Made by a program: the position numbers and the translations under genes. Below the pieces are notes generated by a model, which saw only the letters and a list, made by a program, of their open reading frames with translations, searched no databases and was not told the origin of the DNA. Positions 25,488 to 53,045 of a stretch of DNA of 53,045 nt are shown one piece after another. Each line of letters begins with the position of its first letter. Position 1 is the first letter of the stretch. The DNA is from Escherichia phage AV127, in sequence record OR352957, one strand, 5' to 3'.

Positions 25488-25910
25488 ATGATCATCGATT
25501 CTTCTGAATGCGTGTTGAGCCTGAATGGTGTTCAGCTGTCCGACTGGGCAGACGGTGCCGATGTCATTGACGTGCAATGGGTGGACCCAGCTTCCACCTA
25601 TCTTGCAGGTGCAGATGGCAATGGCATTCAGATTATGAACCCGTCCAAAGCNNCTATCAAGGTTAAGCAAAATGGTCCGGATGCCAAATGGCTTAACGAC
25701 CAGTACAACCTGCAGCGTAACAACATTCGTGGATTTGTCCCGTTTGTGCTGCAAGCCAAAGACCTGCTAAACCAGGATTTGGCATGGGGCAAAAAAGGTT
25801 ACTTTACCGATGGTTCCCCGTGGACTCGCGGTAACGGCCATAACCCGACTACCTTCGCTATTGTGTTCCACCAAGGTGGTATGCAGTTGACTGAAGGCTT
25901 TGACCAGTAA
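25488..25910 (+). CDS. Putative tail tube protein (contains 2-nt N gap at 25651-25652)
   Basis: 140 aa after sheath-like gene. Confidence 0.5.
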   Translation: MIIDSSECVLSLNGVQLSDWADGADVIDVQWVDPASTYLAGADGNGIQIMNPSKXXIKVKQNGPDAKWLNDQYNLQRNNIRGFVPFVLQAKDLLNQDLAWGKKGYFTDGSPWTRGNGHNPTTFAIVFHQGGMQLTEGFDQ

Positions 25911-29095: not shown

Positions 29096-29511
29096 TGATA
29101 TTTACCACAACNNNNNNNNNNNNNNNNNNNNNNNNNNNNNNNNNNNNNNNNNNNNNNNNNNNNNNNNNNNNTATTTACGACTTGGAACCTACCTCCGAAG
29201 GTAAGCAATCAATATCAATTTCTACCGCTGGATATACGTATAACATTGAGTTGTACTATAACACGGTAGGTCAGCTCTGGCAGGCTACAGTGACTGACAT
29301 ATCAAGTAATGCTGTACTTTGTTCCAGTTATGCTTTACAATATGGGCGTATTGCTTTTGGTAACTGGGACACGCGTATAGCGTTGCTGGTAAGTGACAAA
29401 TCCTCCAGCCGCATCGGTCCTATGACTACAGATGACATGGGAGGACGTTGCAGTGTCTACATCGTCGACAAAACAGCCTACCCGTCAGTTTGGCCGCGCG
29501 TTAAAGCTTGA
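29095..29511 (+). CDS. Hypothetical tail protein interrupted by 60-nt N gap
   Basis: ORF track; N-run 29112-29171 makes frame and length unreliable. Confidence 0.3.
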   Translation: MIFTTXXXXXXXXXXXXXXXXXXXXXIYDLEPTSEGKQSISISTAGYTYNIELYYNTVGQLWQATVTDISSNAVLCSSYALQYGRIAFGNWDTRIALLVSDKSSSRIGPMTTDDMGGRCSVYIVDKTAYPSVWPRVKA

Positions 29512-36835: not shown

Positions 36836-37037
36836 TAAACCTGAAGTTGTTTATGTTGACAGGATAGTCAAGGTTTATCCGCCTGGCGCATACATGGTTA
36901 AATGCCATAAACCTGAATTAACCGGTAATACCTGGAAAGCAATAGGTCAGTTAGCTATTGAACGCGGAACAGCTCTTGATGACTGTGCAGACAAGATGGA
37001 CAGCATAATTGACTGGAGTAACAAAGGGGCCGAGTGA
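36762..37037 (+). CDS. o-spanin (Rz1-like lipoprotein) overlapping the i-spanin 3' end
   Basis: Signal peptide ending in lipobox LTSC; starts inside Rz in +1 frame and extends past it. Confidence 0.55.
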   Translation: MTKLQKMIRALIPLLLLPFLTSCADKPEVVYVDRIVKVYPPGAYMVKCHKPELTGNTWKAIGQLAIERGTALDDCADKMDSIIDWSNKGAE

Positions 37038-37051
37038 AGGCCCCTTTATTT
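37026..37051 (+). terminator. Rho-independent terminator ending the plus-strand late block, at the convergence point with the minus block
   Basis: GGGGCC-GAGTGAA-GGCCCC then TTTATTT. Confidence 0.7.
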
Positions 37052-37566: not shown

Positions 37567-39534
37567 TTAGTGTGCCTCTGCCCAGTTACTTTCTATCTTA
37601 GCATCAGTAAGAACAGGCACACGAAGCGGTAGCACAGTTTCCATGACCCGTACGAAATCATAGAATCCATCTTCTGCTTGCTTACCAGTTGGTAGAGAGA
37701 AGTTAAGCTCATCGTGTACCGTCAGGCGAGGTACGCCAATCACGTCGAAGTAACCGTCTTCATACCCTTTCAGCATTGCAGACTTCATCTGGTCTGCTGA
37801 CGACCCTTGCAGCACCCGGTTGATTGCCTTGTGGGTGTCTGCCAGCTTAATGTTCGGGCCGTATTCCTGACGAGCTTCTTCAAATGGCAAAGGCATCTTG
37901 CCGAATCCACCACGCTTTGGAACCCATTTGTTGAACCACGTCTTACGGCCCATAAAGGTTTCTACATACCCCTGGCTATAGCATAAATCTTCGTAATGCT
38001 TCATGGTAGCGCCGATAAATGGCGCACCCTGATGATACGCCTTCAGAACAGGTTCTGCTTCTTCAGGCGTCATTGCTAACTTACGGGCAAGAGCATTAAG
38101 CATCATGCCATACAACAAACCAAAGTTAATGGTCTTAGCCGGTTTACGCTCTATAACGTGACCTGAGGCTTCCTTGATAATATCGACCATAACATTGTGG
38201 TAATCTGCTTCCGGGTTAGCCGCGAAAATTGCTCGTAACTCATCAGCGCCCGGGCCGACTGCAAAATGCGCCATGAATCGATATTCAATTTGGGCGTAGT
38301 CTGCTGATCCCCATCTGTGTCCGACATCCGGTACGAAACAAGCACGAAGGAGTGGTCCCAGTATTTTGTGTCTAGACGGTATATTCTGCAGATTAGGGTC
38401 AGATGAGCTAAACCGACCACTAACGGTTCCACCGTCATCACCGCGCATTTGATGGAATTGACCGTGAAGGAAGCCATTTGTATTCATCCCCAATATATAG
38501 CCACGAATAAACGTGGACTGGATTTTTTCATAAGACTTAATCTCAGACACCAGTTCCGCAAACGGATGGTGCAAGCCTGCTAAGAAGTCCGCTGTAAACG
38601 ACGGATTACCCGCCGCTGTTTTGAAGTACTCCAGACCTAAATGGTCAAATGCAAGTGCTAAATCAGGACCAGAGTTAACGTTAATGTTAAAGCCAATCTG
38701 GTCTTTAATCTGCTGGTGCATTTTCCTTATTTCAGCGCTAAGCGTATCATCCGCCTCTTTGGCTTTGTCAAGGTCAACACGCACACCTGCAAAACGCATC
38801 TTAAGCATTAATGGAATGAGCTTGCACTCCATATAGAATACGTCTGTTAAACACCAGCGACTTAACAAAGGCCACTGGGCTTTGATAATGTGTATTGGTA
38901 AGTCGGCGTCAGATTCAGCATAGTAACCCACAAGACGAGGAGGCGTTTTGTAGATGTACTTTCTGGCTTCACCTGTTGGCTTACAGCCATAAGCATCTGA
39001 AATCCATTGGTACATCTCAGCTGAGTCTTTACCTTCGCCTACGTATTTTCGTCCAAGTCCTTCAAGTGCAACACGCGCGCCTGGGTCAAGTAATGCTTCC
39101 GCGAATTGTACATCCATGCACAATCCTTTGACTTCCACGCCTTCTGCTGCAAGCCAGCCCAAGTCATATGTGATGTTAGCACCGACTTTAACTTGGTTAG
39201 GTCGTGAGAGTTCGAGCCGAAGCCAACCAAGTACTTCCTCAGCTGGAAGGTTATCCTCTTCGCCGAGCTCGTGTCTGATTGGGTAGTAAGCCTTGAAGCC
39301 ATTGTCCGTAGCGATACTAACTCCAACGATATGACCTTCCCTCCTGGCCCAACCACTACCATTTGCATCCATCCCTGGGTCATATGTTTCACAGTCAAGA
39401 CCGATAATCTTCGCAGAAGACAAATCCGGGTAATGCGCGCGCGGCCGCCATCCAGTATCCCTGACGTATGGTATAGGACGGTTGATAGGTTTAACATTCT
39501 TTGCACCTTCAAAGCTATCGAATAAAAAGCTCAT
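37567..39534 (-). CDS. DNA polymerase, family A, with 3'-5' exonuclease domain
   Basis: Exo I motif LDCET; motif A DYAQIEYR; motif B RKPAKTINFGLLYG; motif C VHDE. Confidence 0.85.
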   Translation of the reverse strand: MSFLFDSFEGAKNVKPINRPIPYVRDTGWRPRAHYPDLSSAKIIGLDCETYDPGMDANGSGWARREGHIVGVSIATDNGFKAYYPIRHELGEEDNLPAEEVLGWLRLELSRPNQVKVGANITYDLGWLAAEGVEVKGLCMDVQFAEALLDPGARVALEGLGRKYVGEGKDSAEMYQWISDAYGCKPTGEARKYIYKTPPRLVGYYAESDADLPIHIIKAQWPLLSRWCLTDVFYMECKLIPLMLKMRFAGVRVDLDKAKEADDTLSAEIRKMHQQIKDQIGFNINVNSGPDLALAFDHLGLEYFKTAAGNPSFTADFLAGLHHPFAELVSEIKSYEKIQSTFIRGYILGMNTNGFLHGQFHQMRGDDGGTVSGRFSSSDPNLQNIPSRHKILGPLLRACFVPDVGHRWGSADYAQIEYRFMAHFAVGPGADELRAIFAANPEADYHNVMVDIIKEASGHVIERKPAKTINFGLLYGMMLNALARKLAMTPEEAEPVLKAYHQGAPFIGATMKHYEDLCYSQGYVETFMGRKTWFNKWVPKRGGFGKMPLPFEEARQEYGPNIKLADTHKAINRVLQGSSADQMKSAMLKGYEDGYFDVIGVPRLTVHDELNFSLPTGKQAEDGFYDFVRVMETVLPLRVPVLTDAKIESNWAEAH

Positions 39535-40529
39535 CAGTCCCCTCTCACATACGCAATTACAACTGTACGAGTTGAGTTTTCCATTTTGAGCGCCTGACTA
39601 CCAAGCCCTATTCTTTCCATGCCTTTAGCCAGTTTACTCATCTGACTAATAACACAGTTGAACGGTTTACTAAACTTAGTCGACTGGAACTTAATGTCGA
39701 CGGACATCTTAGGAATAATCTTGTCTGGTAAGTCTGCTTTTGCTGTTGACTCGCCAGTTATCTCCAGAATGGCTTGACCTTCGTCATACCCAGTAAGCTG
39801 GTCCATAACCTCCAGGAATTCAGGAGTGATGGCCTGCATATCCATTTCCATATTGAAGAACTTCGATACGTCTGGCCATTTGGCTGCGAGTACCGGAGCA
39901 TCCATCTGTACGCCATCCGCAAAGCCGAAGAACATCTGACCGCGGGCATATCCTACGCTTGTGGGTTCCATCTTCAGCTTAACCAAGGCCTCAAGCATTG
40001 GCTTGGCTATGGCGCATTCAAATTCAAAATCTACGTTCAACTTCTCGCGTATCATATACTTGCCGTTAGTGGCGTAAGCATAACCATCGCGCAAAAGTAA
40101 AGATGTTGCCCATACCTGCGGTGCTTCGTTAGGTACCCATTTGGCCAGGGCAGTTAGCACCGGGAGTAATTCGCCATGCGCTGAATACCAGTTGTTAACT
40201 GTAGCAAGCGGCGGTATTGGTTCATTAAGCGCTTGCATTCTTGTTTTAAGTACGCCTGCTGTGACTGTGAGGTTTCCAGCGGCTGTAATGTTAAAAGTAA
40301 TCTGTTCGGTTCTTGCCGCATTAACGGCCTTACGAAATGATTCAGCATCCACTTGCAGGTCTGGGAATCCTTTACATGGTGCTCGTAGTAATACGTTCTT
40401 GTAGTATGAATGGATTGTTTCGTTTGCAATCCATATTTTGCCCATAAGACCGCTATCAGTATACTTGATGGGACGAGCTTGTTGAACGGCAATCTGTATT
40501 TGTTTGGTGTCATAGTTAAACTTGCTCAT
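39534..40529 (-). CDS. Putative beta-sliding-clamp-like protein
   Basis: 331 aa; recalled resemblance to DnaN layout (N-terminal MSKF...QQ, mid-protein ATNGKYMI versus ATDGHRLA); weak. Confidence 0.35.
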   Translation of the reverse strand: MSKFNYDTKQIQIAVQQARPIKYTDSGLMGKIWIANETIHSYYKNVLLRAPCKGFPDLQVDAESFRKAVNAARTEQITFNITAAGNLTVTAGVLKTRMQALNEPIPPLATVNNWYSAHGELLPVLTALAKWVPNEAPQVWATSLLLRDGYAYATNGKYMIREKLNVDFEFECAIAKPMLEALVKLKMEPTSVGYARGQMFFGFADGVQMDAPVLAAKWPDVSKFFNMEMDMQAITPEFLEVMDQLTGYDEGQAILEITGESTAKADLPDKIIPKMSVDIKFQSTKFSKPFNCVISQMSKLAKGMERIGLGSQALKMENSTRTVVIAYVRGD

Positions 40530-40536
40530 AGTATAA

Positions 40537-40552
40537 CGGGGCCGAAGCCCCG
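40537..40552 (-). promoter_or_regulatory. Intercistronic RNA hairpin CGGGGC-UUCG-GCCCCG, 8 nt upstream of the 40529 start codon
   Basis: Read directly; UUCG tetraloop on the transcribed strand; no SD between hairpin and ATG. Confidence 0.55.
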
Positions 40553-40559
40553 CTCCATC

Positions 40560-41542
40560 TTATACGGCCATTTGGAGTTTGATGTTTGGCATTGGTTTGT
40601 ACTTCTCAACCATTGGCGCAACATCGGTAGGAGTGAAGTCAAATACTGACACGTCATAAATCGCGTTAATGTCAGGACGACCTTCAAAGTTAGTGTCCAG
40701 TGTAGTATCAGAATTGCTTACGATACGTTGCAGGAAAATCTTTGCCGCATCGATATGATTCTGATAGATGTGATAGTCACCCAACGTAACAGTCATATCA
40801 CCTACCCCAGTACCCAGCTCAGCAGCAATGGTAATCTGCAGCATTTGATGCAACAGAATATCGTGAGGCAGACCCAGAATAACATCCGCGCTACGCATGT
40901 GGAACATCAGCTCTAATTCATTACGGTTGTTAATGAACAGCTGAAAACCATGGTAACAAGGCGGAAGGGCCATGGCGTCCATCTCTTGTGGGTTCCACGC
41001 CGTAATGTACGCCCTGCGGTCAGTAGGCTTAACCTTCAGCGTTTCAATAACATCTTTAAGCTGGTTAGTAAGAACACCATTCTTATAGAAAGGCTTAATC
41101 CATTGCACGCCGTATACCGGACCTAAGTCACGGTTGTCTGGTGTACCCCAACGTTTGTTTGCATCCTGCAGGTTACCTTCCCACCAGTTGCAGCCAAAGC
41201 CTTTGAGCGTGTCGACGTTTGAAATGCCGTTGATAAAGCAGTAAAGCTCAGCAGCAACAGCTTTGATGTTAACAGGTTTAAACACCGGCACCATCAGTTT
41301 GTTGTCGTTGAAAGCCAGTTTAAACGCTGTACCAAAACAACGGCGGGTNNNNNNNNNNNNNNNNNNNNNNNNNNNNNNNNNNNNNNNNNNNNNNNNNNNN
41401 NNNNNNNNNNNNNNNNNNNNNNNNNNNNNNNNNNNNNNNNNNNNNNACCAACACCTGTACGGTCTACAACATCCTCACCTTTACGCAGGATAAAAGAAAT
41501 GATGTCGCTGTAAAGAGAATCGACAGTGCTGTATGTTTTCAT
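40560..41542 (-). CDS. Thymidylate-synthase-fold pyrimidine C5-modifying enzyme, predicted dCMP-directed; interrupted by 98-nt N gap
   Basis: DRTGVG, LGPVYGVQW, DRRAYITAWNPQEMDAMALPPCYHGFQ; Asp in GLPHDILL where ThyA has Asn (GLPFNIAS). Confidence 0.65.
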
Positions 41543-42135
41543 TAAAACAGTTCCTTTTGAGCCGGGTTAACGTGTGCATCGATAATTGCCTGGATGTCAG
41601 GTGCTTTCCATCCTTCAGGCTTAACAATATCCTGACTAGACTTATGCTTGCTGTTGCTTGCATCAGGCTTAGCGCGTTCTTTCGCCATGTTAGCAGCCTG
41701 TACCGCATCCCATGCTGCGTCAAGTGGCCAGTTGTTGTTTGCACACCAGGTAATCAGGTGGATAATTAACTGGGCTAGACGGTCGCAATGAGTGTCTTCA
41801 GTATCCTTAACGTATACAATAAGGCCATCAGCATCGAAACGGTCCATAAATCCGCATGGCGTAGTTAACAGAATCGGATACTCAAATTCGTTGGTGAACC
41901 ATGCAGTCTGGTCATACAGGTATAACGTACCTGCAGCAATGTAAATTAAATCTACAATACCATCTAAGAAGCCAGCTTTGTCGCCGTCTTTCTTAGCTTG
42001 TTTAATTTCTTCCATCTCCTCAATAAGACGGTCATAGCGAAGCTTGAACTCAGGTTTACCGCCTTGACTAACAGGCTTGAGGTCAAACTTCTCATGAAAA
42101 GCGGTAACGCCTGCAGCAATTTTACTGAATCGCAT
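41542..42135 (-). CDS. MazG-like (all-alpha) nucleoside triphosphate pyrophosphohydrolase
   Basis: EEMEEIKQA...DGIVDLIYIAAG acidic helix pattern; immediately upstream of the TS-fold gene. Confidence 0.45.
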   Translation of the reverse strand: MRFSKIAAGVTAFHEKFDLKPVSQGGKPEFKLRYDRLIEEMEEIKQAKKDGDKAGFLDGIVDLIYIAAGTLYLYDQTAWFTNEFEYPILLTTPCGFMDRFDADGLIVYVKDTEDTHCDRLAQLIIHLITWCANNNWPLDAAWDAVQAANMAKERAKPDASNSKHKSSQDIVKPEGWKAPDIQAIIDAHVNPAQKELF

Positions 42136-42520
42136 TTCGTAACTCCTTACAAACAGTTTCGATAAACTTACGTTTAATTTCTGTAGACCAGATAATATGA
42201 CGAGCCTGTTCTAAAGTGTCCCAACGTTCTTTACCCACAGGAAAGGGAACAATGAAAAGGCCGGTACGGGATATGCGCTTGATAAACGGGAATTTACAGC
42301 GCATGGTTGTTTCAAACTTGATAAAGTTGGTTTGCACATCGCGTGTAAACTTGACCTTATCAAATTCATGTTCAAGAGTTTGAGCAAGGTTGCATACTTC
42401 CTGGAAAGAAGATGTGGGCAAGTAATCTTCGCGGCCGACGGTGTTCACGTAGTCGATTTGGCCCTCTAGCCGAAGTATCCAAATCCTGTAATAAGCTTCA
42501 GCAACACGTTGTAGGTTCAT
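42122..42520 (-). CDS. Hypothetical protein (132 aa)
   Basis: ORF track; overlaps MazG-like start. Confidence 0.45.
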   Translation of the reverse strand: MNLQRVAEAYYRIWILRLEGQIDYVNTVGREDYLPTSSFQEVCNLAQTLEHEFDKVKFTRDVQTNFIKFETTMRCKFPFIKRISRTGLFIVPFPVGKERWDTLEQARHIIWSTEIKRKFIETVCKELRNAIQ

Positions 42521-42546
42521 TGTATCTCTCCTCTAAAAGATAACTT

Positions 42547-42575
42547 ATTATACCACATCACTCTCTAGTGGTAAA
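42547..42575 (-). promoter_or_regulatory. Early promoter TTTACC-N17-TATAAT with ACCAC...GTGGT inverted repeat overlapping spacer and -10
   Basis: Minus strand reads TTTACCACTAGAGAGTGATGTGGTATAAT. Confidence 0.5.
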
Positions 42576-42601
42576 GCACTTTTTATGCTTCTGGTAAAAA
42601 T

Positions 42602-42630
42602 AAAAAGGACCAGCGTTAACTGGTCCTTTT
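42602..42630 (-). terminator. Bidirectional rho-independent terminator
   Basis: A5-AGGACCA-GCGTTAAC-TGGTCCT-T4. Confidence 0.65.
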
Positions 42631-42639
42631 GGCAGGGTG

Positions 42640-43197
42640 GTGTAAGGAGATACAAGGAATCGCAGTTATGCAACCAGGCAGCGCATATGAGATTGGCTAA
42701 AGGACTGACCGACTTAATCCCCACGACAAGTCAGAAAGGAGGTACCATCAAGTAGCCAATCACATATGCGTTACTTGCTGTGTGCTCTCACCGCGGAAAG
42801 TATAGAGCGTTGCACTTATCATACCGATGGAGTGGCAAAAGCACACAGCAAGTACAACCTTAGTTGTGGTGTCTTAGCACCTGAGTTACTGTGGATAACC
42901 TGCACCCGACGGGTGTCAAAAAGATACGCCAAAACACCACAACTAAAATTGTGACCGCCGTCTACACCAGGCGCCTGGGGTCAAGGTAGCGAGCCAATAC
43001 CCTTTTCAGCGTTGGAGGAATCGAACCTCACACATCACGGCTTTTACCAAATCTCGGTCAGCGAGCAGAATTGAACTGCATTCACTGGACACCCTCACTG
43101 TTTCAACACACCAGGCTTAATTGATTGTTGATAAGAAGAGAGATGTAAGGATGTCCATTGAATGCACCTCCGTAGAGGTGCGTTCAGATCAGCGCTA
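42640..43197 (-). other. Structured noncoding region with three successive long inverted repeats
   Basis: IRs 42681-42698/42754-42770 (17 bp, 1 mismatch), 42772-42786/42840-42854 (15 bp), 42860-42872/42934-42946 (13 bp); palindrome CCAGGCGCCTGG 42967-42978. Confidence 0.5.
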
Positions 43198-43665
43198 TTA
43201 TTCAGCAACTTCTACGTTGTCGCCTTCAATTGCGCCAGCCAGTTTAGCGGCTTCAGCTTTAGCAGCTTCTGCTTTCTGGCGAGCTTTTTCAGCTTTCTCT
43301 TCAGCTTTGCGAATCTGCTCAGCAGCTTTCGCTTCAGCTTTTTCAGCTTTGATGCGTGCACGCTCTTCAGCTTTACGCTGTTTTTCAGCGGCTTTAGCAG
43401 CATCGCGTTCTGCTTTAGCGGTATCAACGCGCTTAGCCAGAACCTTACCAGTGGCTTTACGCCAGTAGGTCAGCTGAGAAGAAACAGTACCACGGGACAT
43501 TTCGGTAGTAGCAACAACTTCGTCCATAACGTCAGAGCTGGACTTGCCTTCTTCGTGGGCTTTGTCAGCCAGGTCCCATACATAACGTGCGCCAGTACCA
43601 GATGCCGGATACAGTACGCCGTTAACTTCTTCTTTACCAGTTACAAAAGTCAGTTTCTCGCTCAT
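43198..43665 (-). CDS. Putative DNA-binding protein with K/A/E-rich histone-H1-like C-terminal tail
   Basis: Internal ATG with GAGGAAAA SD; C-terminal KAAEKQRKAEERARIKAEKAEAKAAEQ repeats. Confidence 0.45.
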   Translation of the reverse strand: MSEKLTFVTGKEEVNGVLYPASGTGARYVWDLADKAHEEGKSSSDVMDEVVATTEMSRGTVSSQLTYWRKATGKVLAKRVDTAKAERDAAKAAEKQRKAEERARIKAEKAEAKAAEQIRKAEEKAEKARQKAEAAKAEAAKLAGAIEGDNVEVAE

Positions 43666-43771
43666 AATTTTTTCCTCGTCTACAGGGCTTAATGTTTGTT
43701 CGTTACGTGAGTTAATATACGTCATTTAAAAGAGAGTGTAAACACCTTTTTTAAACTTTTTTCATTAGTGT

Positions 43772-43993
43772 CTAGAAAGGCACATCATAGTCAAAAAGTT
43801 TACATCCGGAAGACAGGACTGCCGGCGGTGGTGTTTTGCCTCCGGATAATAGACAACCTCCTGCCTGGAAACTACGGCAGTTCGCACAGCTCATATCCTG
43901 CAGGTATATAATAAGCTGCCGGCGGACGTGCCGTGGTAAAGCTTTAGCCTGGGTTGCTACCCGTTCAAATAGTTCTCTGTCATCGAGCGCCAT
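43772..43993 (-). CDS. Hypothetical small Cys-containing protein (73 aa)
   Basis: ORF track; CANC...GGC...GC cysteines; overlaps helicase 3' end. Confidence 0.3.
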   Translation of the reverse strand: MALDDRELFERVATQAKALPRHVRRQLIIYLQDMSCANCRSFQAGGCLLSGGKTPPPAVLSSGCKLFDYDVPF

Positions 43994-45650
43994 ATCCGTT
44001 CCCCCAATCGTAGTTCATGATTTGTGGGTAGGGACGTTTAATCCATACCTTAATACGCTTAGGAATGGCCAGCTCACCCTTACGGCGGATAAACTCGTCG
44101 CATGTTTCAGGTGGTTCGGTTCCTGCAGCATTACGCCACCAGGCATCTGCCATTTGTTTAGCATTACCATGGGCCTCAATATTTACCCAAGTTGTGTACA
44201 CTTCCAGGTTTGAATAATACACAACCTTTATACTGTCAGGCCGTCCTTGCTTCTGGAATAAGGAATAGTTTACCAGCGTAACGTCTTTGTCTACAACACG
44301 AAGCTGGCCATTAGTCATTACCTCTTCTTCTGACGAAGTGAATGCAATAGCCGGTCCGTTAACTGTAAATTCAAATTCATGTCCGCACATCGGATATACA
44401 CCATTCTCGTCTGGCGTACTTCCTTTAGCCGGATGCTTACACGTACGAGCAGCATAGCCACTTACCTGGTGACAGATAGGGCACTCTTTACCACCAGGCG
44501 TTTTCTCTGACCGTTTCTTTTTCTTCTTACCAAGACGTGGCGGAACAGCTGGGTCATCAATAGGACCAAGGTCAATGGTATTAGATGTAAAGTCCATAAC
44601 AAGACAGTCATGCTTGCCAGGCGCTGTACGTAGTCCTCGGCCGAGTATCTGCACCCACAAAGCAACAGACGTGGACGGGCGCAAGATGCCGAGCATATCA
44701 ATCTCAGGATAGTCAAATCCTGTCGTCAATACGTTTACGTTTACACATACCCGTGCTCGTCCGCTTGTAAACTCTTCCAGTGCGGCTTCACGTTCTTTCT
44801 TTGTAAGACCGCCATGTACAACAACAGTCTGCCAGCCTCGCAGATTAAATTCGTCTGCTATGTTGTGGGCGTGTTCAACACTTGTGGCGAATACAAGAAC
44901 GTGGTTCCTGTCTTTACCGTAGTGCATCATCTCACGAATAGCCGCGACTGTTATACTATGCTGGTTGGCTACCTTCTCAAGCTCTGACGGGATATAGTCA
45001 CCCATCCTTTCGCCAACATTACTGGTGTCAATCTTGGTTAACACTTTCTTGTTGACCAGGCGTGACAGGAAGCCTTCATTTACCAGTCTGGTAAATGCGT
45101 CAGGTGTTGTAAGGTCATAGCAGATGTCGGTAAATATACCGCAGTCAAGTAAATGACCCCCTGCCAGGCGATACGGAGTTGCTGTAAGTCCTGTTACTTT
45201 TACCTTAGGATTAAGCTCTTTGAAGTGAGCAATAACCTTACGGTATGTTGTTTCAGACTTCTCAGGAACAAGATGGGCTTCGTCAACGAATATAAGATTG
45301 AACTTACCTGCTTCTTCCAGGTTCTTAATGATTGACTGTACTGACGCTACAACGATACGACCTGAAAAGTCTTTGTGTCCTGCGCCTGAAGAGTAGATAG
45401 ATACTGGGGCTTGTGGCCAGTGACGTACAATCGCTTTGGCGTCTTGTTCTACCAGCTCCTTGACGTGTGTCAATATAAGAATGCGCTGACGGGGATAGCT
45501 GGTAAGAATATCCTTCATCAACATACCAAGCACAGGTGATTTACCTGAACCTGTCGGCATGACAATAAGTGGATTACCACTATAAGAATTGAAGTACGAC
45601 CACCAAGCTGTGACCGCTTCTTGTTGATACCAGCGAGCTTCAAAAGCCAT
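43980..45650 (-). CDS. SF2 DNA helicase (DEAH-type) with C-terminal Cys cluster
   Basis: Walker A MPTGSGKS; Walker B FVDEAHL; CPICHQ...C near C-terminus; GAGGAG SD. Confidence 0.7.
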   Translation of the reverse strand: MAFEARWYQQEAVTAWWSYFNSYSGNPLIVMPTGSGKSPVLGMLMKDILTSYPRQRILILTHVKELVEQDAKAIVRHWPQAPVSIYSSGAGHKDFSGRIVVASVQSIIKNLEEAGKFNLIFVDEAHLVPEKSETTYRKVIAHFKELNPKVKVTGLTATPYRLAGGHLLDCGIFTDICYDLTTPDAFTRLVNEGFLSRLVNKKVLTKIDTSNVGERMGDYIPSELEKVANQHSITVAAIREMMHYGKDRNHVLVFATSVEHAHNIADEFNLRGWQTVVVHGGLTKKEREAALEEFTSGRARVCVNVNVLTTGFDYPEIDMLGILRPSTSVALWVQILGRGLRTAPGKHDCLVMDFTSNTIDLGPIDDPAVPPRLGKKKKKRSEKTPGGKECPICHQVSGYAARTCKHPAKGSTPDENGVYPMCGHEFEFTVNGPAIAFTSSEEEVMTNGQLRVVDKDVTLVNYSLFQKQGRPDSIKVVYYSNLEVYTTWVNIEAHGNAKQMADAWWRNAAGTEPPETCDEFIRRKGELAIPKRIKVWIKRPYPQIMNYDWGNGYGAR

Positions 45651-45671
45651 TTATCATCTCCTCATTAACTT

Positions 45672-45700
45672 TATATATTATACCACTTCCTTGTGGTAAA
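45672..45700 (-). promoter_or_regulatory. Early promoter with ACCAC...GTGGT inverted repeat upstream of helicase
   Basis: Minus strand reads TTTACCACAAGGAAGTGGTATAATATATAA. Confidence 0.5.
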
Positions 45701-45708
45701 GTATACTT

Positions 45709-46587
45709 TTATTTTAAGGAAAGTTTAACGGGCTTCTCATCCTGCGGGAAGACATCAGCAGGTCGATAATCATCACAAGCTGCTAATTGCTCTTCGAGTG
45801 TTTCGAGCTCTTTCTGGTGCTTGTTACAATACCACACTTTGCCCTGAAGCGGTTTACTATAGTGGCAGGTTCTGCAGTTCCTGTCGGGCATTGCTCCTTT
45901 GTGGCATAAGTGGTGGTACGTGCACATTCCTGGCTTGCACTCCCACCAAATAGGCGATTCAGAAATCTTCGGCATATCCAAACCAGATTCCGCATATACG
46001 ACAGCCTCTGCTTTGCTCAGTTGTATGTCGCTTTCCAGTAAGTCAATCTCGACCACTTCAAAATACATCTCATCGGTGTTCTTGTTAATTGCAATATACA
46101 CAGCTTGATTCAGCTTAAGCTTCCGCATGTATACCTGCATTTGAGCATAGTGCACCGGCTTACTGGCTTTAACAGACTTGAGCTTGATTAGCTCTTTAAA
46201 CGACTTATCACCATGCGTTTTGAATTCAGCAAGTGCCCAAACGCCTTTGTATTTGATTACACAGTCACAAGACCCAGAGAAGATGTCATTGAAGTCGTGT
46301 ATGCGCCACTGCTTACCTGTTTTAGGGTTGACGTCCAGCACTTCATCACATACGGAACGAAGCCACTTCACAATTCTGCTTTCTTCAAGGTTACCACGTT
46401 CAAACAGACGAAGTTGCTTAGCGGTAAACTTCTCCTTGAACGACCAATGCAGAACGTGCCAAAGATAGCGATAGCAGTTGTGTCCTATCTGCGATGCTCC
46501 AAGATGCCCGCGTCGTTCTTCTCTTTCGTGGGCTTCGACTATCTTGACATCAATACGTTTCTGCAGGTCGTCAAACGGACTGGGCAT
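45709..46587 (-). CDS. RecB-family (Cas4-like) PD-(D/E)XK nuclease with 4-Cys cluster
   Basis: Start ATG 46587 with GAGGAG SD; D...LAEFK motif; one N-terminal and three C-terminal Cys (CKPGMCTYHHLC). Confidence 0.45.
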   Translation of the reverse strand: MPSPFDDLQKRIDVKIVEAHEREERRGHLGASQIGHNCYRYLWHVLHWSFKEKFTAKQLRLFERGNLEESRIVKWLRSVCDEVLDVNPKTGKQWRIHDFNDIFSGSCDCVIKYKGVWALAEFKTHGDKSFKELIKLKSVKASKPVHYAQMQVYMRKLKLNQAVYIAINKNTDEMYFEVVEIDLLESDIQLSKAEAVVYAESGLDMPKISESPIWWECKPGMCTYHHLCHKGAMPDRNCRTCHYSKPLQGKVWYCNKHQKELETLEEQLAACDDYRPADVFPQDEKPVKLSLK

Positions 46588-47056
46588 CGTTAAACTCCTC
46601 AATGCTGAATTCATCGTATACAATATTATGTGCCCACAAATGAGCGACGGCATTTGCCATGCTATCCTTCCATTTGGATTGTGAAGCTGTATGTGCCAAT
46701 GCAACTACACGTACCAGGTTAAGGTTGGCTATCAGCATGTTAGCACAATGTTCGCACGGCGGGTAGGTTATGTAGATGGTAACCGGGCCTAACGAAGGAG
46801 TGTCTAGCTCTCTCCTTATATTAGCTAAGGTGTTTATCTCGCTATGAATAGTTAGAGCGTTCTTGAGGCTATTAGGCACTATTCTTATAGAGTCTAGCTG
46901 CGTAGGTAAGCCGTTATATCCAGTGGAAATAATACGCTTGTTCTGGTCTACAAGAACGCTACCGACCTGGCGTTTCGGGTCATTCGACCAGCTTGCAACT
47001 TCACAAGCTATGCGCATAAACCGCCTGTCCCACTTGTCCATCTTCTTCTTTTGCAT
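46571..47056 (-). CDS. dCMP deaminase (cytidine/deoxycytidylate deaminase family)
   Basis: Zinc-binding motifs HSE and PCEHC. Confidence 0.7.
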   Translation of the reverse strand: MQKKKMDKWDRRFMRIACEVASWSNDPKRQVGSVLVDQNKRIISTGYNGLPTQLDSIRIVPNSLKNALTIHSEINTLANIRRELDTPSLGPVTIYITYPPCEHCANMLIANLNLVRVVALAHTASQSKWKDSMANAVAHLWAHNIVYDEFSIEEFNDAQSV

Positions 47057-47078
47057 GGTAGTCTCCGTATACGAAAAT

Positions 47079-47094
47079 AGGGGCCGAAGCCCCT
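47079..47094 (-). promoter_or_regulatory. Intercistronic RNA hairpin GGGGC-UUCG-GCCCC between SSB-like gene and dCMP deaminase
   Basis: Same 14-nt core as 40538-40551; lies at the left edge of the tandem duplication. Confidence 0.55.
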
Positions 47095-47769
47095 ATTGAA
47101 TATCTACTCGGCAGGGATTACTCTTCCCAAGGAGCTGCTTCACCGTCATCAGCACCAGGTGCCGTTGCAGTAGCATTCGCCTTCGTTGAAGTACCCGCAC
47201 CTGCACCTACTTTCTTCGTCGTCGATGCAGTTGCTTGAGACTGACCGCCTACTGCAGTAGTTGCTTCAGTTGACGCTTTGTATTCACGAATATCGTTCTG
47301 TGGGTCGTACTCACCGGTCTTGTCAACGCGAATACCTACTTTGCCAGCTACGATACGGTTTTCCAGCATACCAGTAGAAGTCAGTTCAACAATACCCAGA
47401 GCACGGCACAATGCAGACAGTTTGCGCCGAAGCCCCTATTGAATATCTACTCGGCAGGGATTACTCTTCCCAAGGAGCTGCTTCACCGTCATCAGCACCA
47501 GGTGCCGTTGCAGTAGCATTCGCCTTCGTTGAAGTACCCGCACCTGCACCTACTTTCTTCGTCGTCGATGCAGTTGCTTGAGACTGACCGCCTACTGCAG
47601 TAGTTGCTTCAGTTGACGCTTTGTATTCACGAATATCGTTCTGTGGGTCGTACTCACCGGTCTTGTCAACGCGAATACCTACTTTGCCAGCTACGATACG
47701 GTTTTCCAGCATACCAGTAGAAGTCAGTTCAACAATACCCAGAGCACGGCACAATGCAGACAGTTTGCG
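47084..47769. repeat. Tandem direct duplication, two 343-bp units (47084-47426 and 47427-47769)
   Basis: Units read as identical; junction CAGTTTGCG|CCGAAGCCCC. Confidence 0.85.
47118..47411 (-). pseudogene. Truncated duplicate of the SSB-like gene 3' half (97 codons, no proper start)
   Basis: Protein identical to C-terminus of 47461-48006; upstream frame hits a stop at the duplication junction. Confidence 0.55.
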
Positions 47770-48006: not shown

Positions 48007-48113
48007 TGTTTGGTATCCTGTTTAAGTTTAGTTTAATTTCGTTTAACGCTTTACCGGCAGCGTTCGGCCGTGATGCTTATTATACGCCACTTTTTATCAT
48101 GGCGTAAACACTT

Positions 48114-52536: not shown

Positions 52537-52974
52537 CTATTTATATAAGTCCATCCAGTTACGATACTCGTCATAAAACCGGTCAAACTCGTTTTTGGTG
52601 AGTGCAATAGCAACACCATTTACCAGATGCATGGTTCGTGTTTTGATGTTGACATACATGACATTGCTGTACGGAAATAAGCTACCGTCATTGTCAGTGA
52701 AATAAGTAGGTGTAATATGAAGCGCATCACGCAATGCAACCAGTGATTCAACAGCTTCAGCGTGCCATTCACGTTTGAAGGTCATGCAAGGCGGTGCACC
52801 GTCTTCGTCCTGGGTACCGCGCAAAGTAAGGTATACAATTTCGGCAGTATCATTGTGTACAATTACGCTAATGTCAACGATGTCGCTGGTACGGAAGGTA
52901 ACAAAGTGCTCTTCAATTACTTGTTCGTCGGTATTAGGGCTGACGCCCTGAAAGGTCTTGAGTGTGTGAAACAT
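52537..52974 (-). CDS. Hypothetical protein (145 aa), first gene of the minus-strand early block
   Basis: AAGGAG SD 8 nt before ATG; 5' end lies in the terminal repeat (also present as 1-156). Confidence 0.5.
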   Translation of the reverse strand: MFHTLKTFQGVSPNTDEQVIEEHFVTFRTSDIVDISVIVHNDTAEIVYLTLRGTQDEDGAPPCMTFKREWHAEAVESLVALRDALHITPTYFTDNDGSLFPYSNVMYVNIKTRTMHLVNGVAIALTKNEFDRFYDEYRNWMDLYK

Positions 52975-53045
52975 TGGTTGTATCTCCTTAGCAGAATATA
53001 CGTCTATTATGTATATAAAGGAGGGGAAAGTAAATAGATATAAAT
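52819..53045. repeat. Terminal redundancy copy 2 (direct repeat of 1-227)
   Basis: Exact identity to window start; unit length 52,818 bp. Confidence 0.9.

Follow-up and report, generated by a model that had tools for sequence, protein, structure and literature searches.

In phage T4, the start codons of genes 38 and 25 lie 22 and 27 nt from their Shine-Dalgarno (SD) sequences, respectively, and an intervening hairpin shortens these distances to 5 and 11 nt, as reported in PMC3014915; both split ribosome-binding sites (RBSs) have mutational and probing support (Nivinskas et al. 1999; Malys & Nivinskas 2009; via PMC3014915). As sequenced, the gene 38 region reads UAAGGAG-A-[GGGGC UUCG GCCC]U UCUAAAU-AUG, i.e., GGAG-A-GGGGCUUCGGCCC...AUG, and the gene 25 region reads GAGG-C-[CUCAAAG AGUU CUUUGAG]-UUACUAUA-AUG. 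A split RBS has also been described for Escherichia coli thrS (Sacerdot et al., as discussed in PMC3936740), and C(UUCG)G hairpins of phage intergenic regions go back to Tuerk et al. 1988, as cited in PMC8948821 and PMC4371310. In the literature searched, the SD–tetraloop–AUG junction was studied in T-even phages only, and no description of the hairpins treated here was found in the literature on Rosemountvirus or Loughboroughvirus. We analyzed a 53,045-nt stretch of Escherichia phage AV127 (OR352957; hereafter, the window), in which the hairpin GGGGC-UUCG-GCCCC occurs twice, once before gp40 (site 1) and once before a dCMP deaminase gene (site 2). The two identical hairpins are probably independent structures of the sense mRNA with different roles, namely, a split RBS at site 1 and a terminator or attenuator at site 2.

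The window corresponds to the complete genome of a Rosemountvirus-type myophage with ~97% identity to the Salmonella phages SB2 and yarpen, and 62 of the 69 annotated yarpen genes were placed on it. Both sites lie within the minus-strand replication and nucleotide-metabolism cluster (gp23–gp43). The relatives compared comprised 44 close genomes, the Loughboroughvirus group at ~70% identity (S144, ZCSE2, SE4, and Klebsiella AEV23), the KE25/KM/fHy-Eco03 group, Erwinia SOI901, and the metagenomic or IMG/VR contigs L020 and L026, while Erwinia RF1, L021, and L022 (~42% protein identity) formed the outgroup. Scans of metagenome, genome, and IMG/VR collections for further relatives added only five new loci.

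A preliminary description of this DNA had pointed out the same 14-nt UUCG hairpin at 40538–40551 and 47080–47093, in short gaps between minus-strand genes. Both observations were accurate: GGGGCUUCGGCCCC was present on the coding (minus) strand in exactly two copies (40551–40538 and 47093–47080), located between thyA and gp40 (site 1) and between an SSB-like gene and the dCMP deaminase gene (site 2), and both copies folded stably (–15.7 and –15.1 kcal/mol, with z = –2.9 and –4.7 for the site-1 and site-2 RNA, respectively). A partial match to GGGGCTTCGGCCCC with two mismatches was found on the minus strand at 47423–47436; ~0.13 matches to GGGGCTTCGGCCCC were expected by chance, and none of 100 shuffles reached at least three. 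The window contained 29 CTTCGG hexamers, and true flanking stems were found at sites 1 and 2 only. Past the 14-mer itself, no identity linking the flanks of the two full copies was found, and a covariance-model search of the whole window against Rfam at the gathering score gave no matches. The 14-mer is a generic hairpin, present in more than 120 viral contigs of IMG/VR. Both copies have the C-G-closed UUCG loop, the flanking helix, and the phage intergenic position of Tuerk-type C(UUCG)G hairpins, and their layouts are opposite, with the order SD–hairpin–AUG at site 1 and hairpin–U tract–SD–AUG at site 2.

At site 1, the UAA stop codon of thyA (thymidylate synthase, gp39 homologue; 40560–40562, minus strand, as are all features of this site) is followed by a GGAG at 40553–40556, which is the only SD core upstream of gp40 and lies 23 nt before its AUG and 1 nt 5' of the hairpin core (GGGGC-UUCG-GCCCC, 40538–40551; stem extendable to 8 bp as AGCGGGGC/GCCCCGUU, 40554–40535). 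The hairpin core is separated from the AUG by the 8-nt spacer GUUAUACU (40530–40537), which contains no SD-like triplet and only a weak U-tract, and the mRNA thus reads thyA-UAA GAU GGAG C [GGGGC UUCG GCCCC] GUUAUACU AUG-gp40. The gp40 gene (39534–40529, AUG 40529–40527), whose homologues are labelled 'DNA polymerase beta subunit / processivity factor' in relatives, has a conserved N-terminus with invariant M1, F4, and T8. The hairpin occupies the usual place of an SD, as the preliminary description had stated: the 8-nt stretch between hairpin and AUG is free of SD sequences, and the sole GGAG core is found 5' of the hairpin. Among the mapped genes, 42 of 62 have an SD core at 3–13 nt; gp40 has the GGAG at 23 nt only. 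At other sense hairpins of the operon (e.g., 51799–51781 and 49778–49757), the gene's SD comes after the hairpin, not before it.

This arrangement was maintained in all eight ingroup lineages, with GGAG 1–2 nt 5' of the stem and AUG 8–9 nt 3' of it, and no SD-like triplet (GGA, GAG, or AGG) was present in the 8–9-nt 3' spacer of any ingroup lineage. The variable parts were the stop-to-GGAG spacer (0–5 nt), the stem, and the loop; among the close genomes, the 66 nt around the hairpin were 100% identical in 38 of 44. The whole module was missing from the outgroup, in which thyA is joined to the next gene as UAAUUAUG. The linear GGAG–AUG spacing was 23 nt in the window and 26–28 nt in relatives, beyond the ~15-nt limit used to define a split RBS, and the GGAG would be unusable in linear form because 23 nt from the AUG is too far. 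Measured from the G-C-bounded core, the folded spacing was ~7–12 nt (10 nt in most lineages and 12 nt in SE4), and that in the window was 5–9 nt, with 5 nt obtained by maximal-stem counting. The hairpins of the different lineages (–12.9 to –15.7 kcal/mol) lie wholly between SD and AUG and restore a spacing of ~5–11 nt. A distant SD, the lack of a nearer one, a bridging hairpin, and compensatory stem changes in relatives, which are among the features of a split RBS, were found together at this site.

With moderate confidence, we read site 1 as a split RBS bridged by its hairpin, like that of T4 gene 38, which may at the same time terminate transcription weakly or stabilize the message. The stable C(UUCG)G hairpin would fold and draw the GGAG to ~5–9 nt from the gp40 AUG, and with the two thus brought near each other, the 30S subunit is proposed to engage both. 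The hairpin may also serve as a weak terminator or a barrier to 3' exonucleases for the thyA mRNA; any termination must be weak, because the essential polymerase genes follow and no strong promoter intervenes. An outer helix joining the end of thyA to the gp40 AUG appeared in several folds and was dropped, as it is lost in L026 and L020 and its bases are coding-constrained. In the GenBank record of S144, a 'promoter' is annotated over each hairpin (L001:9298–9319 and L001:2933–2957), and the RBS of the gp40 homologue (AGGT) is placed in the hairpin loop and 3' arm (L001:9307–9310). These promoter and RBS annotations look like software artefacts caused by the hairpins.

The preliminary description had proposed a search for the motif in related phages, and such a search upheld the hairpins at both positions but showed the shared 14-mer to be genus-specific. 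In relatives down to ~42% protein identity, a hairpin was located at the corresponding position, with other, compensating stems and many G·U pairs (site 1 in the ingroup; site 2 including the outgroup). Five distinct hairpins were observed at site 1 and 10 at site 2; the site-1 stems were GGGGC/GCCCC, GGGCGGC/GUCGCCC, AGGCGGC/GCCGCCU, GGGGCC/GGUCCC, and AAGGGACCU/GGGUCCCUU. Arm pairing was assessed by a loop-anchored comparison, which replaced MAFFT spacer alignments that had lost the structural register. Each arm paired completely with its own partner (mean contiguous 8.2 and 10.3 bp at sites 1 and 2, respectively), whereas pairing with the arms of other lineages amounted to 2.0 bp. The many G·U pairs in the stems of relatives become A·C mismatches on the opposite strand, and the UUCG loop was on the coding strand in every case. 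Because the stems differ yet compensate, contain G·U pairs, and always carry UUCG on the coding strand, the structures are likely to act in sense RNA. The loops of sister genera sometimes differ (UUAG, UCAC, CUAAUAA, and AAU). No stem sequence is common to the two sites of S144 (GGGCGGC-UUAG-GUCGCCC at site 1 and ACAGGAGC-UUCG-GCUCCUGU at site 2); hence, the 14-mer identity appears specific to Rosemountvirus, and the predicted structure of each site evolves separately, through compensatory change.

At site 2, the hairpin AAUAGGGGC-UUCG-GCCCCUAUU (9 bp; 47076–47097, minus strand, core 47093–47080) is located 20 nt past the stop codon (47120–47118) of a duplicated 3' segment of the SSB gene, described below. 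The G-C core is followed by the U-rich tract UAUUUUCGU (47071–47079, minus strand; UUUUU in relatives), which lies partly inside the extended stem, and then by the dCMP deaminase gene's own RBS (47054–47066, minus strand), consisting of GGAG at 47066–47063, a 6-nt spacer, and the AUG at 47056–47054. The mRNA reads (SSB)-UAA ...UUC AAUA[GGGGC UUCG GCCCC]UAUU UUCGUAUAC GGAG ACUACC AUG-dCMP deaminase. The lineages of the relatives, including the outgroup (RF1, L021, and L022), all showed the same succession, in which A-rich sequence leads into the two arms of a GC stem enclosing a loop, and these are followed by UUUUU, a normal SD, and a start codon. The stem is of the terminator kind (GC-rich, at least 5 bp, with a 3–8-nt loop), with 9 bp including 5 G-C pairs in the window and 10–11 bp in relatives.

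Site 2 is most likely an intrinsic (Rho-independent) terminator or attenuator that also acts as a 3' stabilizer. It would end or thin transcription after SSB, and the 3' hairpin left behind would protect the abundant SSB message; dCMP deaminase would be translated from its own normal SD on read-through transcripts. With no more than 5 G-C pairs and a broken U-tract, the window version is the weakest among the lineages, and it would therefore probably terminate inefficiently. A promoter-like sequence, TTTACG-18-TATAAT, is located directly upstream of the SSB gene (48079–48108, minus strand), with one at the same site in KE25 and S144. Since this promoter-like sequence precedes the SSB gene and the site-2 hairpin follows it, the gene appears to be bracketed as a small high-expression unit, and the promoter–SSB–hairpin arrangement fits a high-output unit with read-through feeding the downstream enzymes.

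Other promoter-like sequences and a palindrome were also observed around this unit. The SSB promoter-like site holds the palindrome TACGCCA-N10-TGGCGTA, a possible operator. KE25 retains this palindrome, S144 does so with a single substitution in its left half, and L020 has the symmetrically altered version TACACCA...TGGTGTA. An extended –10 element (TGTGATATAAT) adjoins the 5' side of the site-2 hairpin in the outgroup (L019:7537–7560, L021:2790–2810, and L022:1500–1520), and S144 has TTGGGA-18-TATAAT in the same place (L001:2899–2928); the window equivalent is weak. A start inside the 5' arm of the hairpin would yield transcripts that escape their own terminator. A promoter-coupled terminator, as described in a preprint (10.64898/2026.08.19.745784), was considered and rejected, since a –10 element 3' of the U-tract would put the transcription start site on or past the start codon.

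The site-1 arrangement was also sought beyond these relatives. IMG/VR was scanned for GGAG followed, after 0–2 nt, by GGGGCTTCGGCCC and, after a further 4–10 nt, by ATG, and 80 of the at least 120 matching stretches were analyzed; a control scan for the same hairpin with an ATG 4–10 nt on, regardless of an SD, likewise provided 80 analyzed stretches. Among the matches listed, an open reading frame (ORF) of at least 60 aa began at the ATG in 64 of the 80 stretches with GGAG and in 28 of the 80 control stretches (p = 1e-8). When the same matches were counted by family, the ratios were 19 of 30 versus 18 of 57 at this ORF length (p = 0.006), and 27 of 30 versus 23 of 57 when the minimum was lowered to 30 aa (p = 8e-6). 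Also among the matches listed, a long upstream ORF almost always stopped 0–12 nt before the GGAG, and the remainder of the control scan consisted mostly of chance ATGs in terminator U-tracts. The module was found in at least 19 unrelated viral-contig families with different flanking genes, one of which was a T4-like gene 37–38 junction and another a Rosemountvirus. Because the spacer was U-rich in only ~6 of the 19 module families among the matches listed, the hairpin of the module is unlikely to be mainly a terminator. The present computations show the structures and their geometry, conservation with covariation, and a statistical association of gene starts with GGAG and the hairpin. We tentatively suggest that the succession of stop codon, SD, C(UUCG)G hairpin, 7–9 nt, and AUG may be a general dual-purpose punctuation of phage operons that arose independently many times, with T4 gene 38, the Rosemountvirus/Loughboroughvirus group, and the at least 19 contig families as instances, a single hairpin ending or protecting the upstream message and building the next RBS, although this proposal is more doubtful than the readings of the individual sites.

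Several observations count against these readings. At site 1, the last 2–3 nt of GGAG show weak predicted pairing (G·U and A-U) with the 3' spacer, which could mask the SD; this caveat weighs little, because folding predicts the same partial SD pairing for T4 gene 38, whose split RBS is validated. In several relatives, UUUU comes directly after the site-1 hairpin, which is classed as terminator-like, and termination alone might explain it there. At site 2, the U-tract of the window is interrupted (UAUUUUCGU, 5 U in the 8 nt after the G-C core), whereas all other lineages have UUUUU, and a consensus terminator scan of the window listed neither site 1 nor site 2; both omissions probably arose because maximal extension of each stem consumes the first U's of the tail. 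In addition, the spacings allowed in the IMG/VR scan were set by the search pattern itself, and the promoters in the published genome papers of this group are software predictions only.

In an alternative account, neither hairpin is more than a leaky intrinsic terminator or a barrier to 3' exonucleases that sets mRNA levels along the operon, and gp40 starts independently of the upstream GGAG, for example, by reinitiation after thyA or by SD-independent initiation on the AU-rich spacer. UUUU follows the site-1 hairpin in S144, SE4, KE25, KM, and SOI901, being placed directly 3' of the stem in S144, SE4, and KE25 (UUUU...), and the consensus terminator scan does list site 1 in S144, where the hairpin is terminator-like. 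GAG(A) can form base pairs with this U stretch, in the manner of terminators whose flanks are complementary, and in the outgroup, thyA and the next gene are coupled across a 2-nt gap with no obvious SD. Moreover, 25 of the 28 candidate starts 3' of a hairpin in the IMG/VR control, among the matches listed, had no canonical upstream SD core. However, the GGAG is invariant at 1–2 nt from the stem while the flanks change, and an A-tract would pair better with the U's; furthermore, the U-tract is not conserved (GUUAUACU in the window and UUAGCUUU in L020), and no U-tract lies directly 3' of the site-1 stem in the window, where (G)UUAUACU has 4 U in 8 nt. Only ~6 of the 19 IMG/VR module families are U-rich, and a stem-adjacent GGAG strongly predicts a gene start among the matches listed. 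We therefore consider leaky termination alone to be unlikely as an account of both sites.

A reused element that depends on a common factor, such as an RNA-processing site (RNase E/III or a phage endonuclease) or a protein-bound stability element, is improbable. It is suggested by the identical 14-mer at two sites of one operon system, and the AU-rich single-stranded stretches 3' of both hairpins may resemble RNase E-type substrates. Nevertheless, the stems, and sometimes the loops, differ between the sites in sister genera with no shared sequence kept, and the 14-mer is generic in phage DNA and matches no Rfam family. Stems of 5–9 bp are too short for RNase III, which also argues against such an element. 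The CUUCGG tetraloop is reported to be bound by no proteins (PMC4371310), a further point against it. The single reused element of the preliminary description accordingly did not hold, given the unrelated stems at the two sites in sister genera and the opposite layouts with respect to the downstream SD. Among the functions it had offered, translational control and 3'-end formation or stability fit sites 1 and 2, respectively, while a specific RNA-processing site was unsupported.

Site 1 is also spanned by a 10-codon mini-ORF, AUG GAG CGG GGC UUC GGC CCC GUU AUA CUA UGA (40526–40558, minus strand), which begins 1 nt past the thyA stop and whose own stop codon overlaps the start codon of gp40 as AUGA. 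A relay in this clade only, with restart at AUG 40558, 10 codons melting the hairpin, a UGA stop, and reinitiation on gp40, would agree with the presence of the ORF and the overlap, both of which fall inside the 66-nt stretch that 38 of the 44 close genomes share without a difference. It is nonetheless very improbable, since the mini-ORF has no SD of its own and is confined to the Rosemountvirus clade, being missing from every other clade with the GGAG–hairpin–AUG layout (S144, KE25, SOI901, and L020). Lastly, a role of the hairpins as DNA, whether as a cruciform or as a single-strand hairpin that serves replication, recombination, or packaging, is scarcely credible, because the relatives' G·U pairs would be A·C mismatches in DNA or in the complementary strand, UUCG is found exclusively on the coding strand, and the hairpins keep their places relative to stop and start codons; that a 343-bp duplication has its junction inside the hairpin would fit hairpin-promoted template switching as a side effect. 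The split RBS at site 1 and the terminator at site 2 thus remain the preferred readings.

This duplication is an exact tandem repeat of 2 × 343 bp (47083–47425 and 47426–47768; 47083–47768 in total) that takes in 97 codons from the 3' end of the SSB-like gene, the spacer behind it, and the initial 10–11 nt of the hairpin. Its junction lies inside the hairpin (GGGGCTTCGG|CGCAAACTG, with 1-nt microhomology). The truncated hairpin copy that the preliminary description reported near 47427 is real and located at this junction, but it contains only the first 10 nt (GGGGCUUCGG, 47436–47427, minus strand), does not fold (–3.4 kcal/mol, z = +0.3), and is a by-product of the duplication. As a result, the intact SSB gene is followed by a non-folding remnant, and a 97-codon partial ORF was created. 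The duplication was absent from yarpen and from all 44 close phage records, and its junction was found in no other phage record, relatives matching as two pieces ~344 nt apart; it either arose recently, perhaps with the hairpin as a promoting factor, or is an artefact of assembly.

Further elements of the operon were also recovered. A third conserved UNCG hairpin, GCACCUC-UACG-GAGGUGC, follows gp36 (43164–43181, minus strand). Its loop is UUCG in S144, KE25, fHy-Eco03, KM, and the Klebsiella phage, and its 3' arm contains an SD-like GGAGGU, after which come AUUCA-AUG (43158) and a very short ORF that lacks annotation (13 aa in the window, 18–25 aa in relatives, and 3 aa in L026); it could be an SD-sequestering structure or a leader peptide. 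A strong terminator (42630–42603) and the promoter-like TTTACC-17-TATAAT (42575–42547), which together occupy 42547–42630 on the minus strand and are conserved in S144 and KE25, form the start of the gp37–gp38–thyA–[site 1]–gp40–pol unit. A bidirectional terminator at 37020–37050, between the convergent gp43 and gp44, marks the end of the replication operon. As for the sequence itself, the window ends are identical over 227 nt (1–227 = 52819–53045), reflecting a circular-assembly overlap or a terminal repeat, and runs of N occur at 41349–41446 (98 N), 29112–29171 (60 N), and 25652–25653. The 98-N run sits between bases that are contiguous in yarpen and disrupts the thyA frame (983 nt here versus 885 nt in yarpen), and the 60-N run stands in place of 36 nt.

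From these sequence features, we infer termination, mRNA stabilization, and translational enhancement by the hairpins. For phage biology, they suggest a graded expression of the replication operon, in which SSB would be made in quantity, the enzymes encoded after it in smaller amounts, and gp40 by way of an RBS that the hairpin bridges. For annotation, gene finders and RBS models that seek an SD within ~15 nt of the start would call gp40-type genes SD-less or misassign their RBSs. Given the spread of the module among viral contigs that are not related, the mechanism of T4 gene 38 may well be in common use rather than a T-even curiosity, and if this is true, synthetic biology would gain a very compact intercistronic part. 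None of these implications is surprising in kind.

Compared with known systems, site 2 resembles the intrinsic terminators and attenuators of phage operons in its GC stem, 4-nt loop, 3' U-rich tract, and 5' A-rich flank, as well as in its covariation-supported conservation and its position downstream of a presumably highly expressed gene; the window version differs from typical ones in having only 5 G-C pairs and an interrupted U-tract. Both sites share the C-G closing pair, the UUCG loop, the unusual stability, and the phage intergenic position of Tuerk-type hairpins, a class that, in the papers citing it, rests on structure and not on function. The thrS site, as discussed in PMC3936740, offers a parallel to the mechanism proposed for site 1, since a hairpin remains folded on the 30S subunit while single-stranded regions on either side of it make contact, but its hairpin is a regulatory operator that lies upstream of the SD region and binds ThrRS, whereas site 1 implies no regulator.

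The T4 split RBSs are closer to site 1. When the 5-bp core is considered, the T4 gene 26–25 junction has the same intercistronic order of SD, 1 nt, hairpin, 8 nt, and AUG, and its structure is kept in close relatives and absent in distant ones, matching the ingroup/outgroup pattern observed here; unlike the GC-rich UUCG hairpin of site 1, its own is AU-rich (~–6 kcal/mol) and has the loop AGUU, and its SD is GAGG. T4 gene 38 shares with site 1 an upstream stop codon, GGAG, 1 nt, the GGGGC-UUCG-GCCC hairpin, an AU-rich spacer, and AUG, with ~17 of 19 nt matching over the SD and hairpin. The linear SD–AUG distances are 22 and 23 nt in T4 gene 38 and site 1, respectively, and those after the maximal stem are 4–5 and 5 nt, and the last SD bases are predicted to lie in the helix base in both. 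The T4 gene 38 site is mutationally backed, whereas the split RBS at site 1 is predicted from sequence and folding. The two belong to unrelated phage groups, and the downstream product is a tail-fibre assembly protein in T4 versus a clamp-like replication protein here; the similarity is probably convergent. Overall, the putative elements at sites 1 and 2 are further examples of kinds already known, i.e., the split RBS and the intrinsic terminator, respectively.

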